Shown piece by piece: positions 71-58,139 of a DNA stretch of 64,000 nucleotides. The position numbers were made by a program, and so were the translations under genes. Source of the DNA: Isurus oxyrinchus (Eukaryota); contig JANJGN010000042.1 in assembly GCA_026770705.1 (NCBI GenBank), positions 3,720,001-3,784,000 on the forward strand, given 5' to 3'. The notes beneath the pieces are model-generated. The model did no database searches and was not told the origin of the DNA. It saw only the letters and a list, made by a program, of their open reading frames with translations. Positions within the stretch are counted from its first letter, which is position 1. The number at the start of each line of letters is the position of its first letter.

Positions 71-140
71 CTGGAATACCGATAGCTGCAAGAACGGGAT
101 AGTAAATGGCAAACACCAGACCTTCTGGTATCCCATGCAT
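71..140 (-). CDS. GPR139/GPR142-like orphan GPCR, coding exon 1 (gene A); exon 2 lies left of the window
   Basis: Minus strand reads ATG CAT GGG ATA CCA...GGT ATT CCA G|GTAAAG = MHGIPEGLVFAIYYPVLAAIGIP. It is 70 nt with a phase-1 GT donor, and is clearly paralogous to the exon at 16901-16970, which splices to a 7TM exon. Confidence 0.85.
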
Positions 141-191
141 TTCTCTCAAAAGCTCCGAGTGTGCTCTGTGCTACACCGAAAGACTGTTACA

Positions 192-253
192 TTTATACAT
201 GATGTCGGCCTCTAGGGAGACAAAGGGAAGGTTTGGCCTTTTACATTAATTAC
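192..253 (-). promoter_or_regulatory. Putative proximal promoter of gene A: TATA box, O/E(EBF)-like site, homeodomain site
   Basis: Minus strand: TATAAA at 197-192, TCCCTAGAG at 218-210, GTAATTAATG at 253-244. The same arrangement precedes the paralog at 16901. Confidence 0.55.
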
Positions 254-659
254 ACTAACTGAAAAAAAAACATTTTAGTGCAGCTGCTGCCGCGCTCACA
301 TTTATGTTTTTGATGGAATAGAATCTGTTTTCAAGCACACTGGCGCGGCTCCAAATTGAAATAATCTGATAGGAGAGTACGGTCCAAGTTGCATTTTTTC
401 CTAAAATTTAAATAACAAGCCAAACAAGCCATTGTAATTGTGAAAGTGAGCACTGTGCACGAGCATCCATGGCTTTAAACTCCGCAGGAAAACATTACAA
501 TGTTCTCACTCTTGATCATTTTTCAGGCCGTGTGAACACGGATCACGTGTAATGTGGCTCCCTTTCCCTTCTGGAATGAGGAACCAATCAGTAGCCATCC
601 ATCATCAGCCTCTCTGCCTGCTTGGACGTCAACTCACGACGAAAAGCGTCTCAATTAAC

Positions 660-3449: not shown

Positions 3450-4350
3450 TCACTGTTTATGCCTTTTGGCAATAGATTGAAAGAGTATTTAAACGCCCTT
3501 TTCAGCTCCGCTTTGTATTTAGTCTGGGTCCCTGCATATATAAATGTATTCTTACAGGATCTAAGGAGTTAAAAACACTGTCGGATTTGCTGCAGAATAA
3601 ATTTTGTGTCAATGGAAATGGAACTGATAGATCAGCTATTTCCCATACTTTGTGCAAACAGGAAACGTACAATATGCGTCAAGGCCAGCTGGAGGAAACT
3701 GCCTGAAATGGAGAAGAGTACAAAAATAGACTTGCTGTGGCTCTTCATCTCTGAGTCACTCTGATTCTCTCCATTCCTGTGGGATCAGAGTCTGCTGCAG
3801 GATTTACTTACCAGTAGAATATTTCAGGATGTCTCAATATCGAGCAGCAAAGTCAGGAGAAAGGAGAGACAAGGGGTTAGAATACAGTCCAGCCAGTCAA
3901 ACATTCTCCATGGAAATAAAATATAAAATGCATCATCTATGATAGAGTTACGTTGTTAACGATATAAATAAGTTCATACATGAAATAAAAAGGGGTGGCT
4001 ATCAAAGAGGACTGCACACAGATCATTCTTAAATTTCCAGCTGCTGTTTTCTAACTGCAGTATTTCATTTTCAGCTCCTGGTGACAAATGGCTAGGGAAC
4101 AGTAAAAGGTGAACTTGAGGGTTGACCAGAGAGTACAACCTTTCGAACCAGAGTTTAAAGCAACAAGGACGACATAGAGGAATGGTGGACAGAAAACTGA
4201 CTGGAAAATAAACAGCCGGAAATGGGCTTAATGTCACGGTAATGCTAATGACAAGGAGATCTGTCACCACCATGGATACCAGATACTGCGTGATACATCA
4301 GGAGAAACCACAAATTGCTCGGGAGAAGATCACAATCATTAGAAAGTTAG
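3450..4350 (-). pseudogene. GPR139-like GPCR pseudogene, exon 2 (gene B)
   Basis: CT-rich acceptor CTTACAG|CT AAC TTT, then ANFLMIVIFSRAICGFS*CITQYLVSMVVTDLLVI... LAICHQELKMKYCS*KTAA... NTFIYAGTQTKYKAELKRAFKY. Multiple stops and frameshifts; no exon 1 found. Confidence 0.85.
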
Positions 4351-4984
4351 CTGTAAGGCAGAGAGCGAGAGAGAGAAAGAGGAGAGAGAGAGGAACAGAA
4401 TTAGTGCTGAAACTCTCAGCTACACCTGCAGTTTGGTGGGAGAGGGTATGGAATTTATATCATGAATACTTGATTCAACGCTGGAACTGATTAATTTAGT
4501 AACGTAGTGTGTTTTTTTTTATTAATATTGTCCCAAATACATTGGAAATTGGAACATGAAATAACACAAAACACTTATTTTCTGATTTCTGTAAAGTTTA
4601 TGCAATCTAGAAGTAGCAGGAATTGAACAGGATTAACGTATTAAATAGACAAAAGGACAGCCTGAAGATGGCATAACGGACAGATAATAAATCAATACAT
4701 TTAGTCGTTTAAATTCCGGTAAATAATAACGTTATGAAATGTTAAACCGCTATAATACTTAGAGCAATCGAATGACAGGTAATAAGATATGGGTAATAAC
4801 TTATTCCTAAGAAATAAATGAGGGAACCACGGGACGATGGAAAATAAAGTTGAACGAACGCCATTGATTCAATTCGGGTTTAGTTCCTGTGGAAACAGGT
4901 CAAACAGCATCAGCGGGTTTTTTTGCAGCTCAATGATTGCTGTAGTGGGAGATTAGGTCTCGTATTTTAGTGAAGATTTGTAAT

Positions 4985-5120
4985 TGAAGAAGCAGAAAGT
5001 CCTCCGTTTAGAGTCTCATCAAACGAGCGACAGAGCAGGTAGTGCTGTCCTTCCTCAGGAGTATGCAGCTAGGTTAGGGACTCGAGATCGGGAGTAGGGC
5101 TCAAACCCAGGGCTTGAACA
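4985..5120 (-). mobile_element. tRNA-derived SINE (SacSINE/DeuSINE-like) fragment; duplicated copy at ~6885-7030
   Basis: Reverse complement contains gggtttgagccctactcccg (B-box-like) followed by ctgagg..agcact...tttgatgagactctaaac. A similar plus-strand copy lies at ~50790-51000. Confidence 0.5.
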
Positions 5121-6094
5121 CTGATATTTCAAAATGTAGATCCCCGAAATAAAGTGGCTGTGAGCATAATACATACTGGTTCCGATGAGTATCACACAGC
5201 CTTGACAACAAAATGCATCTTAGGAGAATTGAATGGGGCAGTTAACATTAGCAACAGAGTTAAAAAAAAAGTCTTCGTAACTGTTCATCGATTGCAACTA
5301 TTTGATAAATTTACGAATAAACATGTGGAGGGTAAACAAAAATATGGAAAAATACATACCACTATCATTTATAGTTTCGCGCCAATTAGAACATATGCTG
5401 ATCTGTAATGGTTAAGCTCAAAGCACCACAAAAAAAAACTCCCTCCCACAAATTATATTCCTTCTTCCACAGTTTGCTCATTCAGTTATGCAACAACAAC
5501 CCTTCGCAATGTCCTCTTCTTATCTAAAATATTTACTGTGCCACATGGCTTATTTTCAGCAGCAATTTGGATACGAAACTTACTATTGCTTCATTTCGAA
5601 CCTTTAAATGCGGTGAAAAGCTGAGACCCAAATACAAATCTTGCGAATCAGCTGTCACACCCTGTCAATTGAAATGAATTCACTTTATCCATCAACAAAT
5701 TAAATGAGCTTTGTACACACCACAGCCATCGCTATTTAAATTTATGTCGATATCAATATAAATTAACATCTAGGCATGTAAAATAAACGACCTGTTTGAC
5801 TAAGAAATTCAGGTGTTAATGACATTATTGAAGTAACAATTAAACTACATTTTGCAGCATTTGTATCATTGCCAAAAATTCCTTGAATACAAGACACAGA
5901 AATCGTGGGAACACATAAAGCAACCTTGAATTCTTTGCTGTTGGAGGACAGCCAAACATCCGGAGAAGCTAAACAGTAGACATTTGACCCTCAAGGCTTC
6001 ACAGTTAAAAAAAAGATGGAAAAGATTTAATTCCGGAAAAATTACGTAGAATACAATGAATTCAGATTCAGAATGTTTCTGTTTCCTATTTTGA

Positions 6095-6248
6095 GTGATT
6101 CAGAAAACTGACTGTAAAAAAACAGCCGTAAACCGGCTTAATACCATTGTAATGAAAATACAAAGGAAATCTATCACCGCCATGGACACTGCGTATCTAG
6201 AAAGACCACATCTTCCTCGGGAACGTTTCACGATAGTCAGAAAGTTAG
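6095..6248 (-). pseudogene. Truncated GPR139-like exon-2 fragment created by the tandem duplication
   Basis: (CT)n acceptor then ANFLTIVKRSRGRCGLS-RYAVSMAVIDFLCIFITMVLSRFTAVF. It stops at the duplication junction. Confidence 0.8.
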
Positions 6249-8559
6249 CTCTAAGCTAGAGAGAGAGAGAGAGAGAGAGGAGAGAGTAGGGAAGAATTAG
6301 TGTTGAATTTCCCAGCTCCAACATCCGTTTTGCGGAAGAATGGTATGGCATCTGGACCATCAATACTTTATTCAACGCTGGAACTGATTAGTTTACCAAT
6401 GTATAAATGCTGGTCCATTTTTTATTTATATTGTCCCAGATAAAGTGGAAGTCGGAATATAAAATGACACAAAGCACTTACTTTCCGATTCCTGTAAATT
6501 TTATGTAATCTAGAAGTAGAAGGAATTGATCTTCACTAACGTATTAAATTGACAAAAGGACAACCTGAAAATGGCATAAAATACATATAAAATCTCAATT
6601 CATTTATTCATTTAAAAATAAGTAAATAATAACGTTATGAAACTTTAAACCACTATAATAATGAAACCAATCTAATGACAGGAAATAAGGTATGGGTAAT
6701 AACGAATTCCTAATAAGTATCAGAAGGAACCAAGGTACGATGAAAAAAAAAAATGAGCGAACACCTTTGACTAAATTTGGGTTTTGCCCCCGTGGAAACA
6801 AGTCAAAGCGCATCAAGGTCTTTTTTTTTCAGTTCAGTGACTGCTGTAGTGGGAGATGAGGTCTCGCAGCTGTAGTGAGGATTTTCAACTGATAAAGCAG
6901 AAAGACCTCGGTTTACAGCCTCGTCAGAAGGACGACAGAGTAGAAAGTGCTGGACTATCTCAGCGGCATGGAGCTGGGCTACAGACACGCGATCGGAAGT
7001 AGGGAACAAACCCAGGGCTTTCCGAACGAACACTGAAATTTCAAAATTTAGCTCAGTTAAATAAAATGGCTACGAGTATAATGAATTCCGGCTCCGAAGC
7101 GTATCACACAGGCTGGACAACGAAGTGCACTACTAAGGAGAATTGAATGCAGCTGTTAACCGCAGCAACGGAGTTAAAAATGATCATCACAGTTCAGCGA
7201 CTGCAATGATTGATGTTAAATTTACGCATTGTTAGTCAAACACCAATAAACATGTGGCGGGTAAACAAAAACATGGAAAATACTTACCACTATCATTTAT
7301 AGTTTCACCCTAATTAGAAAATATGGTGACGTGCAATGGTTAAGCTTAAAGCGCCAGAGAAAAACAGCCTTCCCCAAATGGTATTCCTTCTCCTACAGTT
7401 TGCTCATTCAGTTATCCAACGACAGCCCTTCGCAATGTTCTGTTCTTCTCTAAACTATTTAGTGTACCACATGGCTTATTTTCGGCAGCAATTTGGATAC
7501 GAAACTTACTGCTGCTTCATTTTGATCCTTCTAAATGCGATGAAAAACAGGCCCACATACAAATCCTGTGAATCAGCTGGCACCGCCTGTCAATTGCACT
7601 GTATTCACATTATCCATCAACAAATTAGATGAGCTTTGTACACACCGCAGGCATCGTGACTTAAATTTACATCGATATCAATGTAAATTAACATCTATGC
7701 ATGTAAAATAAATGACCCGTTTAATGAAACAATTGAGGTGTAAATTACAATATTGAAGTACAAATTAAACTATATTATACATCATCTGTATCATTGTCAA
7801 AATTCCTGTCAACACAAGAAACAGCGCGCCTTGGAACATATAAATCAATCTTGAATGTCTTGCCCTTGGAGCGCAGCCAAAAACCGGTAGAAGCTAATAG
7901 TAAACATCTGACCCTCAAGGATTCACAGTTAAGCAAATGTTGATAAGAACTAGTTTTGGAAAAAAATATAGAATACAATGAACAATGCCAGATAGTACAG
8001 TAAGCTACAGAGACAAGACGCATGTCCCTGTAAAAGCCATTACCCAGACACATAACTACAGAGACATAGCTCAGCCATCTTTAGGATACAAAGGATTGAG
8101 TTATGAGAGAATTCCGTTGAAAAGGTAAGACAAATGTACACTCTACGATTAAGAAATTATACTGGATTTTAAGAATAACTTCTTCAAATCAATATTTGTT
8201 TGACTATCCAGATTGTTGAATAAAGTGGATTTATAATCTTATGCTTTCTTGCATAGCATTGCTAGGTTATATTCGGTGATATAGTAGTGATATACATATG
8301 AGTTGTAGCCTCATACTGAAAACCTCACGAACCCACATATAAGTAACAATATCGTAGAAATCGTAAGTTTGCTTTCTAAGTGCGGATAGTGGTAAACTGT
8401 TAAAGAGTTTTTTCTTACTGTAGTATACCTGTAGTAATATTCTACCCTGGCAGAATTTTGCTGGTTCGACAACTCCGAGTAGCTGTCTGAGTTGTTTTGA
8501 ATTCGTACAGAGCAGTTGTTGGGGGCGGGGAGTGGCGGTGGGGGAGTAAAGCAGTCGGA

Positions 8560-13479: not shown

Positions 13480-15840
13480 CACACTTGAATGAAACCATGT
13501 CGATGAAATCAGTGCGAGAGTGAGAGAGGGATATTGGCTCAGAAAATCTAGATGTAGATGCAACCTGGGTGGAGCTAAGAAGCAACAATGAGTGGAAAAG
13601 ATCACTTATCTTTAGACATCCAGACAGCAGTGTCGACATAGGGGACGGCATAAAACAGGAACTTGGACTTGCATGTAACAAGGGTGCTACAGAAATCATG
13701 AGTGACTTTTAACTACATTTTGAGTGTGCAAACCAAATTAGCAATAATAAAATTGCGAATGGATTCCTGTAGTGTGTACGAAATGTTTTTTTCCGGACTC
13801 GTATGTCGAGGAACGGACTGGGGATCAGGCTAACCTAGATTTGGTATAGTGAAATGAGATGCATTAAATTAATAATCTTGTTGTGTGGGGTCTTTTGGGG
13901 AACATTGACCATAACATGATAGAATTCTTCATTGGAATGGAAAGTGAAGTAGTCTGGTCTGAAACGAGGGTGCTAAATCTTACAAAGGAATCGACAAATT
14001 TAGGAGATTTGAGTTGGCTAAGATCGATTGGAGTACTTTATTAAAAGGAAAGATGGTGTGTAGACAAAGTCCAATGATTAAGGAACGAGTACATACATTT
14101 CAAATGTTATACTTTCTTTTCTGGCCCAAAAGAGCAAGACAGTAAAAGCGGCCCAACCATGGGTAAAAAAAATAAATTAAGGATAGCTTTAGATCCAAAG
14201 AGGAGTCGTATGAAGTTGCTAGAAAATTTAACAAGCCTAACGATTGGGGACAGTTTAGAACTCAGCAAAGGACGACCAAGAATTCGAATAAGGGGGGAAA
14301 ATATTGGATGAGGATAAATTTGCAAATAACATAAAAACTGTCATTAACAGCATCTATAAATATTTTTAAAAAAACCTTACAGTCTGAAACGGGAGACTTT
14401 ATAACAGAACAATTACTTTTGCTCGGTCTTCACGTAGGGAGACATAAATAGCTTCACAGAAATACGATGGAATCTCGGGTCCATTGAGAAGCAAGAATTC
14501 AACGAAATTAATGTTACTAACACAATTGTGCTGGAGAAATTAATCGGACTGGAAGCCAATCAATCCGCATGCCTGATAATATACGTCTTGGGGTACTAAA
14601 GGAGGTGGCCATGTAAATAGTGAGTGTAGTGGTTGTCATCTTCCAAAATTATGTAGATTCTGCAACAGTCCCTGCAGATTGCAGGGTGTTAAATATAACC
14701 CCGCTATTTTGAAAAGGAGTGAGGGAGAAAACAACGAATTGCAGACCTGTTAGCCGAACTTCAATAGTAGGGAAAATGCTAGAGTCTATTGTAGAGTATG
14801 TGATAACAGGACTCTTTAAACTTATCAATGGGTTGAGACAAAGCTAACATGTATCTATCAAAGGAAATCATGTTTAACAAACCTACTGGAGTTTTAAAGG
14901 ACGTAATCTGCAAAAAGGATAAGGGAGAACCAATGGCTGTGCTGTAGTTGGATTATCAGAAAGCCTTTGACAAAGACCCAAAGTTAGCGTGTAAAATTAA
15001 AGACAGGAAAGAAAGCAGGAATAATTCGGTCTTCTTTGGAGGGGCAGGCAGTGACGAGTGGACTAACAGGGATCAATGCNNNNNNNNNNNNNNNNNNNNN
15101 NNNNNNNNNNNNNNNNNNNNNNNNNNNNNNNNNNNNNNNNNNNNNNNNNNNNNNNNNNNNNNNNNNNNNNNNNNNNNNNNNNNNNNNNNNNNNNNNNNNN
15201 NNNNNNNNNNNNNNNNNNNNNCGAGAGGATTTGAGTGCAGGAGCAACGATGTCTTACTGCAGCTGTGCATGGTCATTGTGAGATCACACCTGGAGTAGTG
15301 TTTGCAGTTCTGGTCCCCTTACCTAAGAAAGGATATACCTACCGTAAAGGGAGTTCAGCCAAGGTTCATCAGGCTGTTTTCTGGCCTGGCAGAATTATAG
15401 TATGAGGAGAGCTTGGGCCGGCTAGGCCTTTATTCATTGGAGAACAGAAGAATGAGAGGCGATCGCATTGAAACATATGAAACTCTGACAGGAATGTACA
15501 GACTGGATGCGGGGATGATAATTCCTCTGGCTCGGGCGTCTAGAACAAGGGGTCACAGACTCAGGATACGGGTTAGACCATTTAGGACTGAGATGAGGAG
15601 AAACGTCTTCAATCAGAAGGTGGCGAGCATTTGGAATTCTCTAGCACAGAAGGCTTTGGAGGTCAAGTCACTGGATATATTTAAGAAGTAAATAAGTAGA
15701 CCACTAGCCTTCAAACGCATCAAGGGGTGTGGGGAGAGAGCCGGTCTAAGGCGTTCAGATAGAGGATCAGCCATCATCAAACTGAATGGCGGAGCAAGCT
15801 CGAAGGGCTCGAACAAGTAATCATACTCCTATTTTCAATA
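13480..15840 (+). mobile_element. CR1-type LINE (HER1-like), long decayed copy spanning the assembly gap
   Basis: Endonuclease remnant (IMSDF.LHFECANQI ~13695), RT remnants (NCRPVSRTSIVGKMLES ~14735, LDYQKAFDK 14948), C-terminal LGLYSLENRRMRGDRIETYE...FRTEMRRNVFNQKV (15413-15691) and 3' UTR. Confidence 0.9.
15080..15221. other. Assembly gap (142 N)
   Basis: Run of n characters inside the CR1 copy. Confidence 1.
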
Positions 15841-16788
15841 TTTTGGTGGACATTTTTTTCCAGACACTGAAAGTAAGCATGAGGAATTAACTACCTGCAC
15901 AAGGTTTGTAACACTGCTTCACATGTGCACATTGAAGATAGCAGTTAAAATGGGGCCTGTCCATATTCAATGCAAGATGACTGAACTGGGCCTTTGCAGA
16001 CTTAGTGCAGCCGTGCATAATCTCGCCTGGCGCCACGGAAAGCAATTTACGGGAAATGGATGTGCACACTTACCCTTCCTTATCCGTCATGAATGAATGT
16101 AACGTGGCAGAAATGGAGCCTCGACACATCACATAACCATTCCGAACTGGAGCGGTCCACATTAACTAGAATCGTGCTCAACTGGACCTCCGTTTACGGA
16201 GTTTAAGCGTACTCTCTATAATTATGCATAATTAACGCATAAGCGCTTGATTGCATCTGACCAAATAAAACGTAGCCGTTCACAGCTACACAGCTATGCG
16301 CACTCACTAGAGTTGGATTTGACATGTCTGCAATGAACCTAACTGAAGTGGAATAATCCACACTGCAAGAAGCCGTACAGAAGAGGATTTGAGTACTTTA
16401 AAGCTAAAGGTGATGAGTTGAACATTTCCACACCAAATGCAAACAAGCTTATGTGAATGAGACAGAAAATGCTGGAAATACGCAATAGACCATTCAGCAT
16501 CTGTGGAGAGAAAACGGTAAAAGTTCAGATCCATGACTTTACATCGAAGTTGGGGAATAGGGAGCAATGGAAGAATTCTTGTTTTCACTATAGCGGCGGG
16601 AAACGGTTGTGATAAAGGGCAGATGATAAAGAAACATCAATGTAGGTTTGTGTTAATGTGGAAGACAGAAGGGCACTTTGTGAGGATGTTCCGTCAGAAC
16701 AATGTCAGTGACCTTGAAGAGCTTTCTACTCTGTCAAAATAAAAACAATTTCCTGACAGCTGCAGCACGAGCATCTTTGTTTCAATTT

Positions 16789-16850
16789 CAATTATTGCAA
16801 AAGATCAAAGCGTCTAATTGTCTCCCTGGAGGCTGGCCTGACATATATAT
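16789..16850 (+). promoter_or_regulatory. Putative proximal promoter of gene C: homeodomain sites, O/E-like site, TATA
   Basis: CAATTA 16789-16794, TAATTG 16815-16820, TCCCTGGAG 16823-16831, and TATATA within 16841-16850. Collinear with the region upstream of gene A. Confidence 0.55.
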
Positions 16851-16900: not shown

Positions 16901-16970
16901 ATGCATGGATTGCCAAAATGTCTGATTTTCATCATATACTATCCCATCCTTGCAGCGATCAGGATTCCAG
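16901..16970 (+). pseudogene. GPR139-like GPCR exon 1 (gene C)
   Basis: ATG CAT GGA TTG CCA...ATT CCA G|GTTAAG = MHGLPKCLIFIIYYPILAAIRIP. It is 70 nt, with a phase-1 donor matching the acceptor at 18351. Confidence 0.85.
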
Positions 16971-18351: not shown

Positions 18352-19260
18352 CTAATTTGGCAGTAATTGTGATCCTGTCTCGAGGAAGATGCGGTCTCAC
18401 TGGATGTATCACATACTATCTGATGTCGTTGGCCATGACGGATCTCCTGATCATGATACTTGCTGTGATGTTAAACCGGATTGTAGGTACATATTTCCCA
18501 TTTAGTTTCCTTTCCATCACTCTGGCCTTTGCTCTCAGTCTTTTGTTCATATATGGCGTCAAGGATTCTTCTGTCTGGGTGACAGTTGCTTTCACCTTTG
18601 ATTGATTTGTAGCCATTTGTTGCCAGAAGCTGAAAACCAAATATTGCACCAAGAAATCGGCAGCTGTGGTCATAGGAACTGTCTGCGTTGTGCATTGTGC
18701 TAAAAAAAATAACCTTGTACTTTGCTTGTGAACCTTCTGTTATCACAGACAATACACCCTAGTACTGCAAACTAAAGCCAATATATTATTCATCACCCGG
18801 ATGGGTGGTACATGACAGCATAAATGCCGTTTTAACCCCTTGTCTCCTATTTGTTCTTATTTTGCTGCTCAATGTTCTGACGGTCAGGCACATTGTTGTG
18901 GCCAGTCGAGCCCGCAGAAGACTCCGAGCCCACAGCAAGAGTGAGAACCAAAGCGACCCAGAGATGGAGAAGAGGAGAAAGTCCATCGTTTTACTCTTTG
19001 CCATCTCGGGAAGTTTTATCCTGTTATATTTCCTCGCTCTTATAACTTTCCTTTATGCACGAATTGCCAGCGTTAGTTATTTCGATGGCTCGAATTTCAA
19101 TCAATCAAATGTTATACTGGAGGAGTGCAGACTTATGCTGCAGCTTTTAAGTTCCTGCATCAACCTGTTTATTTGTGCAGGTACCCAGAGTAAATTCAGA
19201 GAGGAGTTAAAGAATGGCTTGAACTATCCATTGAGTCTGATTGTTAATTTATTTAAATGA
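18352..19260 (+). pseudogene. GPR139-like GPCR exon 2 (gene C), disrupted
   Basis: CACAG|CT AAT TTG gives ANLAVIVILSRGRCGL...SVWVTVAFTFD* (DRF motif CGA>TGA at 18603-18605). A frameshift follows at the A-run ~18702 and a TAG at ~18760. TM5-TM7 follow (LLNVLTVRHI...RRKSIVLLFAISG...QLLSSCINLFICAGTQSKFREELK) to TGA at 19260. Confidence 0.92.
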
Positions 19261-20629: not shown

Positions 20630-22030
20630 CGAGTGAGTCTCACGTCAGTGGTCGGGAAACTATTGGAGAAAATTCTGAAGGAAAGAATCTATCTTAACTT
20701 GGAGAGAGAAGGTTTGATACGAAATATTCAGCATGGATTTTTCAGAGGTAGGTCAAGCCAAAAAAATTTTACTGAGTTTTTGAGGAGATGACCAGGTGTG
20801 TAGATGATGGTAGTGCAGTTGATGTAGTTTATATGGATTTCAGAAAAGCCTTTGACAAGGTCCCAAATGGCAGCCTTATAAATAAGGCAAATGTGCATGG
20901 GATACAGGGTAATTTGATAAAATGGATTATAAATTGGCTTAGTTGTAGGAGACAGAGTGTGATGACAGAAGGCTGCTTTAGTGACTGAAAACTCGAGACC
21001 AGTGGTTTACCATAGGGATCTGTGCTGGGTCCCCTATTGTTCGTTATTTATATAAATGACATAGATGACTATGTGAGGAGTATGATTAGTAAGTTTGCGG
21101 ATGACACAAAGATTGGTTGGTTGGTTTACAGTGAGGTTGAGAGTCTTGGGCTGGAGGAAGATATTGGCGTGGTGGTCAAATGGGCAGATAAGTGGCAGAT
21201 GGAATTTAACCCTGGAAAGCGTGAGGTTATACACTTTGGAAGGAGTAATTTGACAAGGAAGTATTCAATGAACAGCATGGCATCAGGAAGATCTGACGAA
21301 CAAAGGGACCTTAGTGCCTGTGTCCATAAGTCTCTGAAGGCAGAGCGGCGTGTTAATGGGGTGGTGAAGAAGGCATTTGGGACACTTGCCTTTATCAGTC
21401 GAGGCACATATTGCAAAAGTAGAGGGGCCATGTTGGAGTTGTACAGAACCTTGGTGAGACCACAGTGGGAGTGCTGTGTGCAGTTTTGATCGCCAAATGA
21501 TAGGAAAGATGTGATTGCGCTAGAAGTGGTGTAGAGGAGGTACACCTGGATGCTGCCTGGGCTGAAACATTTAAGTTATAAAGAGAAGTTGCATAGACTT
21601 GGGTTATTTTCAGCATAGCAGAGAAGACTGAGGGGCGACCAGTTCAAGGTGTACAAGACTGTGAGGCGTATGGACGGGGTGGATAGGGAGCAGCTGTTCC
21701 CCTTAGATGAAGGCTCAGTCACGATGGAACACAAGTTCAAGGTGAGGGGCAGGAGGTTTCGGGAGGATGTGAGGGAAAACCTTTTTTACCCAGGTGTTGG
21801 TGACTGTCTGGAATACACTGCCTGAGAGGGTAATGGAGGCTGGTTGCCTCACATCCTTTATAAAGTGCCTGGATGAATACTTGGCACGTCCTTACATTCA
21901 TGGTTGTGGACCAAGTGCTGGTCAATGGAATTAGTTAGGTAGGTCAGATGTTTCTCACGTGTCAGTGCAGACTCGATGAGCAGAGGGGCCTCTTCTGCAC
22001 TGTGCGAACCTGTGATTCTCTGATTCTGTG
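20630..22030 (+). mobile_element. CR1-type LINE, 5'-truncated RT and 3' UTR
   Basis: VSLTSVVGKLLEKIL...QHGF, VDVVYMDFRKAFDKVP, LGPLLFVIYINDID...KFADDTKIG, LYRTLVRPQ, ending in ctgtgattct repeats. Confidence 0.95.
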
Positions 22031-25799: not shown

Positions 25800-27000
25800 G
25801 ACAAGTGATAATAAGAAATTGCAACATCAGTAAGCCATTCGGCCGTTCAACCCTCCCCCCCCCCCATTCAATAACACCATGGCTGATCTGCCCCAGGCCT
25901 CAACTCCTATGTACTGCCAGCTCTCCATGAAGATCAACTCACGATATTTCAATAATCTATCCATCTCTTTTTTAAATACCTTCAGAGATCAAGCCTCCAC
26001 AACTCTCTGGGGTAGAGAATTCCAGTCATTCAATACTCTCAGAGAGAAGATATTCCTTCGCAACTCAGTTTTGTATGAGTGGCCCCTTATTATGTAACTA
26101 TGTCCCCTAGCTCGAGATTCCGCCACGAGATCGAACATTTTCTCAATATCCACCTGCCAACAACCCCTCCCCTCAGGATTCTGTTCATCTCAATAATATA
26201 ATTCCTCATTCCTCTAAACGCTAATAAATAAAGTCCTAGTCTGTTCAGCCATTCCTGATAAGTCAACTCCTTCATCCCAGGAATCAGCCTAACGAATCCG
26301 CTTTGAACTGCATCTGATGCCAATATATCATTTCTTAAATACGGGGACCGAAACTGTACATAGCACTCCAGGTGTGGCCCCACCGAAGCCAGCACATTTG
26401 TAAAAATACCTCCCTATTTTTAAAACTGTAACCCCCTAGCAACACAGGCCAAAATGCCATTTGCCTTCTTAATTACTTGTTACATTTGCATGTTGACGTT
26501 TTGTGTTTCGTACACAAGAACAATCAGATCCTGCATGTTTTTGGGGTCTCTCTCCATTTTAATAATAGTCTGCCTTTTGATTCTTCCTACAAAAGTGAAT
26601 GACCTCACACTTTCTTGCATTAATCTCCATCTGCCAAGTGTTTTTTTTTTTTCCCACTCACTCAACCTATCTACAACCCCTTTTATATTCCTTATGTCCT
26701 TTCACAACATGGCTTCTCACCTATTGTTGTATCTTCAGCAAATTTGGATACATCACACTCTGTCCGCTCCTCCAAGTCATTGCAATAGATAATAAATAGT
26801 TTAGGCGCCAAGACTGATACTTCTGGCACTCCATTTGTTGCGTCTTTCCAATGCGTCTGAAAAGGACCCATTAATCCAGACTCTCTGTCTCCTGTGTGTT
26901 ATCTAATCCTCAGTCCATACTAATACATTTCTCCCAATACTGTGAGCTCTTATCTTGTGCAATAATCTTTTACATGGCACCGTATCGAATGTGCCAGTCA
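25800..27000 (-). mobile_element. CR1-type LINE RT and 3' end
   Basis: ORF 26090-26395 (PHLECYVQFRSPYLRNDILA...RLGLYLLAFRGMR) and SKFAEDTTIG at ~26740. Confidence 0.9.
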
Positions 27001-36716: not shown

Positions 36717-37612
36717 TCACTGTTTAATAAATTTAACAATTACAGAAAAGGGATATTTCACCACATTCTTCAATTGCTGAATTGAGTCTGGGTCACTGCA
36801 TAAATGGCCGTGTTAGTGCAACAACTTAGGAGCTGAATTTAAATCCCAGTTCCTGCACAAACCTAGGAAGGTATACAGGAATAGCATCTAACAAATATAG
36901 TCTATTACAAACAAAATGTATCATAAAAACTACCCACAACAGGATAAAATTCCCCGATAAAGCAAATAGTAAAATGATGGATTTCCTGCGTTTCTCCATC
37001 TGTGGGTCCCTGGGTCTCTCCCCACTGCAGTGAGCCCGGAGTCTCCTGCGGCCTCTGCTCAACACTAAAATATATCTGACAGTTAAAGCGTTCAACATCA
37101 AAATCAAAACAAGTGGCGCAAATGGTGTTAAAATATAATGAAGACATTCGATTGTTGCCCACATTGATGAGAATTCAGCATCCGTCACTAATGTGCAAAA
37201 CCAAGGAGCATTGGAAAGCGAATATTGACCTACATACATAAAGTACCAGAATGTATCCTTCACACAGAATAGCAGACTGACTGTTCCGAGAACCACAGCC
37301 GCCACATGCTCTGTGCAATATTTTTTTTCAACTTCTGGGAACAAATAGCCAGAAATCTATCAAAGGTGAAAGAGACTGTGAACCAGACAGAACAATCTGT
37401 GGCCGCATAAAGCAGGACTGCATGGATATTATACACTTTAAACCTCGACAAGAACTGAAACTGAGCCCAGTAAATAATAGCAATTTGCCTGAATATGAGA
37501 TCAAGGATAACGACCAGTAGATCCGCGGTTGCCATGGACACCAGGTGAAGGGAAAGACATTTTGAGAGACCGCACCTTCCCCGAGACAGTGTCACAATAG
37601 TCAGTATGTTCA
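36717..37612 (-). pseudogene. GPR139-like GPCR exon 2 (gene D), three frameshifts
   Basis: CCTTACAG|TG AAC gives VNILTIVTLSRGRCGLSK...SVWFTVSFTFDRFLAICSQKLK. Frameshifts occur at the A8 run (~37325), at ELGF/QLLSCC (~36838) and at TQF/QLKNVVKYPF (~36778). Stop TGA is at 36719-36717. Confidence 0.93.
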
Positions 37613-38914: not shown

Positions 38915-40140
38915 TATCCTAACCTCATTACAGCTTTGTTTCAAACATGGAAAAAAGAGCTGAACTCCCGGGGGAAGGTGAGAGTGGCTCCCCTTGACAT
39001 GAAGGCAACATTTCGCAGAGTGTGGCATCAAGGGCCCCCAGCAAACCTGGAGTCAATGGGAATCAGGGGGGAAATCTCTGCTGCTTCTAACCATACCTAG
39101 CAGAAAGGAAGATGGTTGTGTTTGTTGGGGGTCGATCATCTCAGCGCTAGGACTTCACTGCAGCATTCCTTCAGGGTACTGTCCTCGGCCCAACCATCTT
39201 CAGCTGCTTCATCAATGACCTTCCTTCCATCACACAGTCAGAAGTGGGATGTTCGCTACTGATTTCACAATGTTCAGCACCACTAACGACTGGGGTACTG
39301 AAGTAGCCCATGCTCAAATGCAGCAAGAGCTGGACAATTACCAGGCTTGCACTGACATGTGGCAAGTATCTTGTGCACCGCTCAAGTGTCAGGCAATGAC
39401 CATCTCCAACAAGGGAGAAACCAACCATCGCCCTTTGTCATTCAATGGCATTAACATCACTGAATCCCCCACTATCAAATCCTGGGGTTTACCATTGACC
39501 AGAAACGGAAGTGAACGAGCCATATAAATACTATGGCTACAAGAGCAGATCAGAGGCAAGGAATATTGCGACGTGTAACTCACCTCCTCACCGCCAAAGC
39601 CTGTCCATCATCTGCAAGGCACAAGTCAGGAGTGTAGTGGAATGCTCCTCCCTTGCTTGGATGGGTGCAGCTCCCAGAACGCTCAAGAAGCTTGACACCA
39701 TTCAGAGCAATGCACCTCGCTGGATTGGTAGCACATCCAAAAATATTTACACACTCCACCACTGTTGCATAGTAGCACCAGTGGGTTGCATCTCCAAGAT
39801 GCACTGCAGGAACTCATCAAGGCTCTTTCAGCTGCACGTTCAAACCCCGACCACTACCATCTAGAAGGAGAAGGGGAGCAGACAGATGTGACCGCCACCA
39901 AACGGAAGTTCCCCTTCAAGTCATTCACCATTTTGACTTGGAAATATATCGCCGTTCCTTCACTGTCGCTGGGCCAAAATCCTGGAATTCCCTTCAGAGC
40001 AGCACTCTGGGTGCACCTACACCCCGAAGACTGTAGCAGTTCAAGAAGGCAGCTCAGCACCACCTTCACAAGGGCAACTAGTGATGGGTAATAAATGCTG
40101 GTCCAGCCAACGAAGCACATTTCCCATGAATGGATAATAA
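38915..40140 (+). mobile_element. LINE of the second family (CR1/L2 group): RT and 3' end
   Basis: LDMKATFRRVWHQG, PQGTVLGPTIFSCFINDL, MFATD, ICKAQVRSVVECSSLAWMGA, and 3' tail gggcaactagtgatgggtaataaatgctgg...ataataataa. Confidence 0.9.
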
Positions 40141-41099
40141 TAACACATATTGCATGTTCGCTTTCTCTAGATTGTGTACTCGAGCACCCAAATTATGAAA
40201 ATTTACAATTTTTACCAGTTTCTCGCCTGTTTAAACGCTGGATGAGGATAGAATGAACCTCGTCTGTGTTATTATCTCAGGGAATCTGAAGGTTCTGGTG
40301 CAATATTAACACAGGGCTTTGATGCGTGTGTAAATTAATATGTGAGATAATTCATAAAATTAATGGTCCTGGCCTCCCATTTGGTGGCGATACTCGGATA
40401 ATCAGCACTGATTGTAAATGTTATTAAAGCCCTATCTTTTTCCACCCTTGCAGCTTGTTTTTCTTGCCTACGTAGCGGGGTGGGGGAGATGAGGTGTGTA
40501 TGACATGCGTAGATGGCGGGTGATCAGCAGTTGGGATTGGGATGGGTGAGTAGTTAACCTGCTTTGCAGTCGGTTGGGGGTTGAATGGACGGGCGATGGC
40601 TAGTGAGAGCTGTGCAAGTGGATCGACGGGAAGGCAATCGAGTCAGATTAGATATTCTGGGGTCAGCAGTTGGGGGTGTTGTGGGTTGTTGTGTGTGGGA
40701 TGAATGTGGGAGTTCTGTAGGTGGGGGTTGGGCGTGCATGGGCTTTGCTTGAAAGTTATTCACTGACACATGCTAGAAATTAATAGCGGGAAAATACTAC
40801 GCCAAGCATCTGTCACACAACAGGCACAACAGTCCAAAACTAAAGGCAGTATTGGAGTCATTGTTAGAGGGGCCTGGGCAATACAAATCTGCCCATCTGA
40901 AGTTTAAAGTTCATGGGAAATTACCATGCATGCTCCTGGATCAAGATTTCAGATGGGTCCTGATATGCAGAGCGGCAGACATTGCAATATTCACCACTGT
41001 TGGCATCAGGAGTTCCGGTTAATGATATAGTCAGTATTAATTTCACGGCAATGGACTCCAGACACCAGCTGCAGAAAGAGGGAAATTGCACAAGAGCGA

Positions 41100-42882: not shown

Positions 42883-42979
42883 CAGGAATGCCAACAGCAG
42901 CGAGGAGCGGAAAGTAAATCCTTTGCAAATCATAAATCACCCAGACAATCCGAAGTGCAGTTGGAATTTCAAAGAACAT
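42883..42979 (-). pseudogene. GPR139-like GPCR exon 1 (gene D)
   Basis: MFFEIPTALRIVWVIYDLQRIYFPLLAAVGIP G|GTGAGT. The phase-1 donor matches the acceptor at 37613, giving an intron of ~5.3 kb. The true start may lie further upstream in the open frame. Confidence 0.85.
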
Positions 42980-43574
42980 GATCTCATTTGCTGTGAGATC
43001 CAATGATCGCTGTTTATACTGGCAACCACACTCTGTCAAACACCCATATACACATTGAAAACATTGCCTAGATATAGGCGGAGGAGAGTCCTGGTGATTC
43101 AATTAAACAATACACTGGCTGGCATTAATTACAGTCACTTAACAAACAAGATGCCTTAACCCTTTCATCCCATCACTTTGTATGGAAAAAATATACTAAA
43201 ATCTGCATGGCATTCCTATTCAAAGCAAGCACGTGACGTCAGCCACTTTTGTGATAAACAGGTTATGGAATTCTGCAGGCTTGCAGCACAGATAAGAAAA
43301 GAAAAACAGACTCAAATCCAGAGCTTTGATTATTCCGGAGATAAAATGCTGCCAAACAATTTCATGGTTTCAATTAATTTCTCAGGGGGTGAACACAAGT
43401 GCCAGAGTATGGACAGAAGCAGTAACTGTCCAAAAGGATGCATAGTTGATCATTGTGTAGTGATCAGAAAGGGAAATAGTAGACTGATGATTTGAAACTG
43501 CTTGGTTTAACAGTAAACGTAAAACTGATGCTATGGATCAACAATTACCATGGAAATGATATGAGAGTTTAACT

Positions 43575-44095
43575 TTAAAGCTGACCTGGAAAATGATGCC
43601 CCGTTGTAACTAAACCCTGTAATTGAAATCCATGGAATATTAGTGTCCATGTGAATGACACTACACAATCTAAAATGACTTTGTACCTGACACCACGGAC
43701 TTACAGTGACCATGCAACTAATACCTGGTCATACAGTGCTCATTTGAATTATGCATAAGTCCATCAGTGGGCTTCCTACAGATACTGTTGTCAAACGGTG
43801 ACCATGGGATTGAAATATGGTATCCTATTCGCCTTGTACCCGAAACTTCGCTGTAACTGATAATCGAGTACAACAGTGACGTTGTAACTGATATCCCGAT
43901 CTTACATTGACCATGTACATGACATTCCAGTCTATCAGTGCTATTCTAACTGATAATTCAGTCTAACAGTGGCTTTGTACCGGATACCCCAATTTGAACG
44001 TGAACATGTACCTGACGCCCCGGTCTAACTGTGACTTTGGAACTGGTATACCAGTTTAATAGTAAATTTGTACCTGATACTGCGGTGAAAAATTC
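43575..44095. repeat. 31-bp minisatellite (degenerate)
   Basis: Consecutive 31-nt units: tgtaactgatatcccgatcttacattgacca / tgtacatgacattccagtctatcagtgctat / tctaactgataattcagtctaacagtggctt. Confidence 0.8.
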
Positions 44096-49350: not shown

Positions 49351-50363
49351 AAGTGTATTCTTTCTGCATTGAATAACAATGCGCAGTGTTGATTGTTGTA
49401 TGAGTGTCCATGACACCAATGTTATATTGGTGTCCATCACACAACTTGCATCTGGTAAGGAACAGCATTTATTGGAGTCAATGAAATATTAAAGATCAAT
49501 TGTGTCTATTAACTAACAAATGCCATTGATGTACCTCGATATTGAGGCCGGGCTATAGATATGAATTTGGATTTTTTAAAATTTTGATTCGTTGCCTTTG
49601 TTTGTCTGCCCCACCCCTGCCAGCATCGCACCTATCGGCTGGTGGAAGACATCAAACTGAGGAAACTTACATTTGCAATTTTTGTGTTGTTTGTAAATCT
49701 CGGAGTCATACTCATGTGCAGCTAAACGTGGTGGTAGGATGTAACAAATGTCTTGAATATACATCACATACTTCCGTACAGCATGGAATTCTGACACAGG
49801 ATACAACTTCAACATGCCTTCTGATCGCCAGTGTGTCTCCTGGACAAGAATAATATTCGTCAAAGTGTTCCTTTTCCTCATAAATGTTCAACCAAGTAAG
49901 TATTTCATGCGATTGTAACGCCTTTATTTTGTTAACTGTATTGTTATTTTTCCTCCAATTTTTCTTCACTCCACTGATGAGGTCAGCTTCCTCGGCTTCG
50001 CTCACTGGTCAGTGAGTGTTCGTACAGTATCTAAATTAGTCACAAGCTGACCTGTCACTGTCTCAGCGGGCCGGAGAAGGGCTTCTCTATTTCCTGCAGA
50101 AATGGTAGCCTTGGTTGAACACTGCCAGAAGGAAATTACACCGATGATGGCCTGTGATCCGTTAACTGAGGGGTGAAATCGCTGAAGCTCCCTGTTTTTG
50201 TTGTTGTCTTCACACTCGAAATGCAGTCAACCGTTGTATTGAAGGGAATGATTTAACCTGAGCCCGTGTGTGCGCGCGTGTGCGTGTGCATTGGAAAGCC
50301 TATTTCGTCCAAATGAAAAAAATCTAAAAGTTGCATTGATAACATTCTGTTATTGTTTTCCAG

Positions 50364-50671: not shown

Positions 50672-50710
50672 CACCACGTTACATAAACCCTTACCACTGG
50701 TACAAAAACT
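50672..50710 (+). promoter_or_regulatory. Recombination signal sequence (23-bp spacer) of V1
   Basis: Heptamer CACCACG (50672-50678, non-consensus), 23-nt spacer, nonamer ACAAAAACT (50702-50710). Confidence 0.8.
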
Positions 50711-53335: not shown

Positions 53336-53420
53336 GTAAGTATTCTTGGAAGTATTTTTGAACCAAACGTAACAGCACTTTAAAAATGGGTTAGCTTTTG
53401 ATTTTATTCTCCATTTAAAG

Positions 53421-53731
53421 CTAGCCTGACTCAGGAAATCTCGGTGACACAACGCCTCCTGACAGTGGTTTGGACAAAAGGAGGCATTACAACTTCAGAA
53501 TGCTTCTATTTCAGTACCAAGGGTTCCTTCAGCTTATTCTGGGTCCTGCAATACCCGGGCAAAGAATCACAAATTCTACTTCGCAAGATTTTGGCTGGTT
53601 ACCAAATGAGAGCACATTCTGCTCGAAGCCTTTTCTCGTCTGTACTGGTCACTACGAATACCATCATTATCTTAAAATTCTCCAAACTGCGGCTCTCTGA
53701 CGCAGCCTATGTATTACTGCGTATTGACACT
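53421..53731 (+). pseudogene. TCR alpha/delta-like V exon (V2) with +1 frameshift before YYC
   Basis: ASLTQEISVTQ...ECFYFSTKGSFSLFWVLQYPGKESQILLRK...LRLSDAA, then GCC T ATG TAT TAC TGC: an extra T at ~53708 shifts MYYCVLT out of frame. Confidence 0.85.
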
Positions 53732-53770
53732 CACAGCGATTGGAACCAGCCCGACAATCGTACAATAACT
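53732..53770 (+). promoter_or_regulatory. Recombination signal sequence (23-bp spacer) of V2
   Basis: Heptamer CACAGCG (53732-53738), 23-nt spacer, nonamer ACAATAACT (53762-53770). Confidence 0.88.
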
Positions 53771-57230: not shown

Positions 57231-58139
57231 CTGCCTCTTTCAACTCTGTGAAGTTGTTAGATAATCATTTAATTTGGAAGCCTGATATTGTATGGTAACA
57301 TGATATCACATGGACACTGATTACCATGTATATGAATCTGTTCCATTCAGACCAGTTGCTGTGAGACTGCATTGTTCACCTAATTTGTCTTCCAAAGTTG
57401 CTTTTTTAAAGTTATTTTATTCATTTTGGATAAATTGACTCTGTTTACATGGCACGTTATTTTTGATGTACTATAAAATAGAAAATCATGGGATAAAAGC
57501 ATGAATTCACGTTGTTTGGTCCTTGACTGTAATTAATGTAAACCAGTGTGTAGTTGTATTGCCTCAGTAGGGAGTTCCTATGTATTATAAATAGATATTA
57601 TTTTTGCTGTGAGTACCGGTGTTTAGTTGACTGTTGTTCACGTTACAAACCATAATCTTTGGATACCACAAACAGTCAAATAATTTTCTGGAACCTTCCA
57701 ATTCGAGTCCAGAAACTTTGGACAATTTATGATTTAGAAGAAATTTACTACCCACTCATTGCTACACTAGGTTTGCCAACTGAGTTATCATTTCGGAAGT
57801 TACTTATGGACACTGCACTTCACTACACATAAACTAATTTACATCAGATTATTACATGTTTACTGCATAATCCACGTGCTCTGTTTAAGATGCTTGAGAC
57901 ATGTAATATTTGATCTTTCGCTGATTCTGTCTTGTATTTCAATAAACATTTTCAGTTTCTCATGACCTGCTTCAACTAGCAGTCTCTGAAGTCTTGAACA
58001 AAATCCATTCATAATTCAGGTCCCTTCAGTTTGCTTTCTTTCCACCGTCTCCTGCTCCTTCATGTCATGACTGATTCTGGATTGACAGTGTAGATGAAAA
58101 CCTGTAACACATGTTCTCGTAAAATGTTTATTCGACTGA

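Follow-up and report, generated by a model that had tools for sequence, protein, structure and literature searches.

The question raised by this locus is in which cells the members of a very large shark family of GPCRs (G protein-coupled receptors) find expression, and whether their promoters hold the answer. The window analysed here is a stretch of 64,000 nt from Isurus oxyrinchus (contig JANJGN010000042.1, positions 3,720,001 to 3,784,000). The initial annotation proposed that the region directly upstream of a receptor gene at its left end is an olfactory-receptor-like promoter combining homeodomain, O/E (EBF) and TATA sites, and that the same arrangement precedes other members of an expanded, pseudogene-rich 'GPR139-like' family.

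Pieces of class A GPCRs are encoded across the window (Pfam 7tm_1 matches). The host is a cartilaginous fish, and the receptors belong to a very large elasmobranch group, in the genes of which a phase-1 intron separates a short exon 1 from a single long exon 2. The following parts of such genes are present:

71..140, minus strand: exon 1 of gene A, 23 codons with a phase-1 GT donor, 77% identity to residues 1-26 of P0001
140, minus strand: ATG start codon of gene A, exon 2 of which lies outside the window
3455..4351, minus strand: exon 2 of pseudogene B, with many stops
6103..6249, minus strand: B', a truncated exon-2 copy inside a 1.9-kb duplication
16901..16970, plus strand: exon 1 of gene C, with its ATG at 16901
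18352..19260, plus strand: exon 2 of gene C, a pseudogene with two stops and one frameshift near 18705
36720..37612, minus strand: exon 2 of gene D, a pseudogene with three frameshifts
42883..42979, minus strand: exon 1 of gene D, 66% identity to residues 1-32 of P0121
57683..57781, plus strand: remnant of exon 1 of gene E, with the start codon and GT donor lost

Neither exon 1 nor a promoter of pseudogene B, and no exon 2 of gene E, was found within the window. The tandem duplication (4190-6060 and 6101-7982, 78% identity) carries the exon-2 start of pseudogene B. Every gene with an exon 2 inside the window (B, B', C and D) is broken. Frames resembling LINE reverse transcriptase were recognized by eye at 14948-15800, 21016-21489, 26090-26413 and 39219-40190, and 142 bases at 15080-15221 are an N gap. 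A 93-nt tandem repeat in two copies (74%) occupies 43854-44027, about 750 nt upstream of the gene D promoter module; no 26-nt satellite is found upstream of the receptor genes in the window. A search of Rfam gave no match.

The description of the family as expanded and rich in pseudogenes holds. The C-terminal half of gene C retrieved 986 proteins at E<=1e-5 and gene D retrieved 324 at the same threshold. All 120 matches listed for gene C come from sharks or a skate; the majority are annotated as 'probable G-protein coupled receptor 139', and the top identity is 75%. By hand count, Heterodontus francisci contributes 77 of the 120 rows listed for gene C and 61 of the 120 listed for gene D, and at least 138 clusters below 90% identity, out of 238 listed, belong to this species. 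More distant relatives (24-34% identity), identified among the 10 of 150 representatives that were looked up, are present in newts, coelacanth and teleosts (P0340, P0341, P0354 and P0376). A quick tree was computed from 36 rows, of which 34 had been hand-picked from the database matches, with species labels copied by hand; it places gene C in a 13-row clade that includes a skate (SH-aLRT 99) and gene D in a 16-row clade that includes a ray (SH-aLRT 100). Because each clade has a skate or ray member, the split between the C and D subfamilies predates the divergence of sharks and rays, which is dated to approximately 270-300 million years ago. Scans of metagenomes for exon-1 ends yielded 0 and 4 matches, and none of the 4 is family-like.

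The affinities of the family are less close than its database label implies. Membership in the olfactory receptor (OR) family was rejected because the receptor frames match Pfam 7tm_1 and, weakly, Srw but no OR model, and have two coding exons instead of an intronless coding region. The name 'GPR139-like' stands insofar as human GPR139 is the best solved-structure match of a full-length family member (E 4.6e-10, 42.5 bits). This similarity is far too low for orthology, which was likewise rejected, and judging by this score the family is only distant kin of human GPR139 despite the label 'probable GPR139'. The closest known systems are GPR139/GPR142 and, as candidate kin, the orphan 'GPR210' clades described beside them in bony fishes (PMC6504862, PMC8557429), yet the family has expanded to well over 100 genes in one shark. 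Sequence entropy averages 1.35-1.51 in the outer segments versus 0.75-1.05 in the inner ones (120 of 238 near-full-length sequences, with approximate segment limits), a roughly twofold difference in variability that suggests one signalling face and many pockets. The family is thus large, clustered, pseudogene-containing and variable on its outer face, all traits of a receptor repertoire. A literature search, which left most subscription papers outside its reach, turned up no account of the expansion or of the promoters that go with it. There is no GPR139 entry in the 8 supplements of one catshark paper, and a whale shark paper describes cartilaginous fishes as poor in GPCRs.

Self-comparison of the window revealed, besides the promoters of genes A, C and D, a fourth copy at 57.5 kb, that of gene E, which is a 64% paralog of D. 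The promoter sample thus comprises four copies in two subfamilies. The elements assigned in them from sequence are:

244..253, minus strand: gene A, upstream homeodomain site (HD1), GTAATTAATG, identical in three ortholog contigs
221..226, minus strand: gene A, second homeodomain slot, degenerate, with two substitutions in related genomes
209..218, minus strand: gene A, EBF/O-E-like site, 6/8 palindrome positions, matching the V$NOLF core
191..197, minus strand: gene A, TATA box, 57 nt ahead of the ATG
16788..16797, plus strand: gene C, HD1 slot, degenerate (6/8 of the core)
16815..16832, plus strand: gene C, TAATTG, 2 nt and EBF-like site, sharing its register with the mouse Lhx2/Ebf composite
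16844..16850, plus strand: gene C, TATA-like box
43123..43132, minus strand: gene D, HD1, GTAATTAATG
43088..43105, minus strand: gene D, TAATTG (43105-43100), 2 nt and EBF-like slot, 5/8 palindrome positions
43070..43076, minus strand: gene D, TATA-like slot, weak
57529..57538, plus strand: gene E, HD1, 10/10 positions kept
57556..57573, plus strand: gene E, EBF-like site, 6/8 with a perfect 3' half, preceded by the second homeodomain slot, degenerate
57586..57592, plus strand: gene E, TATA box

The motifs described for individual genes are all present at the stated positions. Collinearity holds between the regions upstream of A (ATG at 140) and C (ATG at 16901). Both contain TTGTCTCCCT(A/G)GAGGC, and in both a TATA-like box follows 12 nt past the 9-nt site. 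Gene D has GTAATTAATG at 43132-43123, a TAATTG and, as its EBF-like slot, the decayed TCACCAGGA at 43097-43089. The homeodomain sites attributed to both A and C need a correction: each gene has one, but not the same one. In gene A the upstream site is intact and the TAATTG slot is degenerate (3/6 positions shared with C), whereas in gene C the TAATTG is intact and the upstream site is degenerate. Another TATAAA is located at 43018-43013 (minus strand), 39 nt ahead of the ATG of gene D; together with the weakness of the aligned TATA slot, it makes a shifted start possible in this gene.

The order and spacing of elements are the same in 4/4 promoters: the homeodomain site is followed after 26 nt by the TAATTG slot, this slot after 2 nt by the EBF-like site, and the latter after 12-13 nt by TATA. 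With the start of the EBF-like slot as the anchor, HD1 occupies -35 to -26, the TAATTG slot -8 to -3 and the EBF-like 10-mer 0 to 9 in a gapless register, and TATA begins at +21 in A, C and D and at +22 in E; the four promoters align without gaps over approximately 60 nt. Single motifs are far less distinctive. Scored against the consensus EBF palindrome, the slots of A, C, D and E reach 6, 6, 5 and 6 of 8 positions, with mismatches at different positions, and a 6/8 match is present in 38% of random 200-nt windows. TCCCNNGRG, with 11 matches versus 9.6 expected, is not enriched in the window, and TAATT[AG] has 124 matches. With consensus strings taken from PMC3247239, the V$LHXF core is matched 8/8 in A, D and E (there are six such sites in the whole window), and the V$NOLF core is present in A and C and absent in D and E. 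The GTAATTAATG sequence itself occurs three times, exclusively in the A, D and E promoters, versus 0.19 expected, and 1 of 100 shuffles gave three copies. It is the joint layout, not the single motifs, that exceeds chance.

Comparison of paralogs has to separate constraint from shared descent. The alignment of genes A and C spans about 340 nt. Identity is 0.59 in the upstream flank and 0.64 in the spacers of the module, compared with 0.76 for the leader, 0.77 for exon 1 and 0.70 where the intron begins. Because the leader, exon and intron are equally alike, this similarity was rejected as evidence of constraint and is attributed to plain paralogy, and for the same reason the 16-mer shared by A and C says little by itself. 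Within subfamilies, 47/60 bases in the motif slots are identical versus 162/276 other upstream bases (0.78 versus 0.59-0.62, p 0.003-0.007), the slots having been chosen post hoc. Between subfamilies, identity is 0.65-0.70 in HD1, 0.50-0.55 in the composite slot and 0.42-0.50 around TATA, as opposed to mostly 0.10-0.40 outside the elements and 0.15-0.23 in the spacers. C and D, which belong to different subfamilies, both have TAATTG directly before the EBF slot, a feature that is lost in A and E. HD1 is the best cross-subfamily block, with a score of 13.6; in sets of 400 column shuffles, 1, 0 and 0 scored as high. The HD1-anchored columns from -10 to +10 outscore 90/90 shifted registers (column-shuffle p 0.0009) and those from -20 to +30 outscore 89/90 (p 0.007). 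In this sample of four promoters, HD1 and the cross-subfamily register are better conserved than the flanking DNA.

Gene E provides an out-of-sample comparison. HD1 is kept at 10/10 positions (chance 0.006-0.012 at a background identity of approximately 0.6), whereas the TAATTG (4/6) and the EBF 9-mer (6/9) are no better kept than the flank; the simulated chance of its 6/8 palindrome match is 0.04. In contigs of related genomes that carry orthologs of gene A, HD1, the EBF site and TATA are unchanged in the three that are fully listed (X4 record 16, X2 record 4 and X5 record 22), and the lack of any change in 27 motif bases has a chance probability of 0.27. The X4 contig differs at 16 positions over 191-526, two of them within the lost TAATTG slot of gene A. 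Positions 1-600 are also covered, at the exon-1 end, by many paralog pieces in contigs from four sequencing runs, and a presumed RNA run contributed a single contig that continues past the exon-1 splice donor. Of 12 sequencing runs retrieved with the sequence, none contained half of its words, and no informative RNA run was among them. Upstream extensions of database proteins, considered as further promoters, were judged by eye to be false exons and were not used.

The simplest alternative is that there is no special module at all, and that four duplicated TATA promoters retain AT-rich remnants of descent in which sites have been read post hoc. The equal similarity of A and C throughout, the abundance of the single motifs and the sample of four fit this explanation, as does a control with a real duplicated pair, which attained 13.9 versus the observed 13.6 in at least one of 60 trials. 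Cross-subfamily profile searches were not significant (E 4.8 and 7.1). Against it, alignment between the subfamilies persists in the motif columns alone, over the gapless 60 nt, with the spacers at background, and HD1 is intact in E; we consider this alternative unlikely. An old, constrained promoter module common to the family is, on the sequence comparisons, very probable.

The resemblance of this module to olfactory promoters is considerable but incomplete. Among mouse OR promoters, 246/314 have conserved O/E sites, with enrichment of homeodomain and TATA sites (Young et al., 2011; PMC3247239). In the promoters of the shark family, homeodomain and TATA sites and candidate O/E-like sites, the latter of a common kind, likewise lie within 200 nt of the start as presumed, with the published cores partly matched. 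In contrast to mouse OR genes, the shark genes are not ORs, have the ATG in exon 1 after the promoter and a coding region split by an intron, and keep a fixed spacing in four copies; the likeness is one of sequence. O/E-like sites near the start have also been reported for 39/39 mouse V1R genes (Michaloski et al., 2011; PMC3247230), a receptor family unrelated to the shark one. This parallel is relevant given that shark olfactory neurons are microvillous, and because V1R promoters carry such sites too, they do not single out an OR reading. The promoters can be described as OR/V1R-like by sequence, on genes that are neither ORs nor GPR139 orthologs.

A further parallel is the Lhx2/Ebf composite, which is sensitive to spacing and, relative to OR promoters, enriched in enhancers (Monahan et al., 2017; PMC5608512). 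The register of TAATTG, 2 nt and EBF-like 10-mer of the Greek Island composite (PMC5608512; J element, PMC7804114) is matched in C and D and absent from A and E, and in the shark family it lies 12 nt before a promoter TATA instead of in an intergenic enhancer as in mouse. The composite of gene C (16815..16832) is the sole match in the window to the strict composite pattern. Judged against one published probe (Sfaktiria), identity is 9/18 for C and 12/18 for D, and 68 positions in the window reach at least 12. The best match to the mouse probe, 15/18, is at 43620..43637 (plus strand), about 520 nt upstream of the EBF slot of D, in a region still alignable with E, where only the homeodomain half is found at the matching place. 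This sequence may be an enhancer or a chance match (13 of 100 shuffles gave one). Altogether, the initially proposed homeodomain, O/E and TATA reading stands with respect to the partly matched cores and register and the preserved layout, whereas the EBF matches are weak (5-6/8).

The best overall explanation, to which we assign a probability of roughly 0.45, is an old constrained module combined with olfactory-type drive of a chemoreceptor repertoire. Under this model, the stretch upstream of gene A is the proximal promoter of a class A GPCR gene with two exons, HD1 would be bound by a LIM-type or other homeodomain factor and the composite just before TATA by a homeodomain-EBF pair; occupancy of the module by these two classes of factors seems probable. 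Through both sites together, the genes would be transcribed in sensory neurons positive for EBF, with the olfactory epithelium as the most likely place, by analogy with mouse OR and V1R genes. That the family is a chemoreceptor repertoire of sensory neurons is close to an even bet given its sequence traits, and expression specifically in olfactory epithelium is a more tentative proposition. The family would evolve by birth and death and serve water-soluble ligands through a shared G-protein face and diversified pockets; such ligands are proposed because GPR139, the nearest characterized kin, detects aromatic amino acids and peptides (PMC8557429). Several observations weaken the olfactory reading. 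Cartilaginous fishes apparently lack ciliated olfactory neurons, the type that expresses ORs, and the top 50 genes of catshark brain plus nose include no GPCR (PMC10116579, PMC11979771). On the promoter sequences, olfactory expression is still the single most likely reading, although below even odds.

The module could instead be real and serve other EBF- and homeodomain-positive cells, with the receptors forming a chemosensory or metabolite-sensing repertoire in brain, skin or gill chemosensory cells, taste, lateral-line or electrosensory cells, sensory ganglia or gut. Neither EBF nor homeodomain sites are confined to nasal genes, and the respective factors are active in many neurons. Moreover, the conserved HD1 block extends 4 bases past the minimal site, into an octamer-like stretch, so that POU proteins would fit as well. 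The nearest solved relative is GPR139, and most catshark OR, TAAR and ORA genes for which data are given in PMC11979771 have their main expression in tissues other than the nose. Conversely, the register of the composite in C and D is the one described for olfactory enhancers, and expression of this kind is considered rather unlikely. Immune expression is the other option raised by this locus, in which EBF1 and a POU (octamer) factor of B cells or leukocytes would drive chemoattractant or microbe-sensing receptors within a T-cell receptor V locus. This possibility is suggested by features between genes D and E:

49978-49985, plus strand: CRE-like site upstream of the first V segment
50363-50710, plus strand: Ig V-set segment 1, with heptamer, 23-nt spacer and nonamer at 50672-50710
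53402-53770, plus strand: Ig V-set segment 2, with heptamer, 23-nt spacer and nonamer at 53732-53770, and a frameshift near the end

Both segments are likely T-cell receptor alpha/delta V genes. EBF1 has a role in B cells, and measured against the octamer consensus the 8-mer overlapping HD1 matches at 6/8 positions in A, C and E and 5/8 in D. Catshark OR genes, as far as presented in PMC11979771, often peak in spleen. The octamer match is, however, weaker than the homeodomain match, which is 8/8 in three genes, and the adjoining V promoters lack TAATT[AG] and EBF-like sites; in that of the first V segment neither homeodomain nor EBF-like sites were found, and the CRE-like site is present instead. 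Furthermore, the TRAV segments of opossum, human and mouse are intermingled with OR genes (PMC2275272), an arrangement echoed by the V segments lying between receptor genes D and E. Because mammalian TRAV and OR genes interleave, the V-segment neighbourhood is no argument against a chemosensory role, and immune expression appears quite improbable.

The significance of the olfactory-type reading, if it is correct, lies in a puzzle stated for cartilaginous fishes, namely their small olfactory repertoire, with about 10-50 known olfactory receptor genes per genome (PMC10116579). The present family lies outside the V2R/OlfC, OR, TAAR and ORA repertoires described for sharks (PMC10116579, PMC11979771), is several times larger and would fill the same role, which makes it a specific candidate for the missing receptors. 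It may, as a possibility short of even odds, represent a further olfactory receptor family of sharks and rays that arose from the GPR139/142 clade of peptide and amino-acid receptors, with more than 100 genes per genome, and was wired into Lhx2/EBF gene choice by way of a promoter of fixed spacing with a composite of the Greek Island type. This would explain how large-nosed animals manage on 10-50 known smell receptors, and would extend the Lhx2/Ebf composite grammar to the promoters of a non-OR family in animals other than mammals. What is new in the present analysis is the promoter layout of the family and, should the genes be expressed elsewhere, they would still constitute a large uncharacterized receptor repertoire with a defined promoter.
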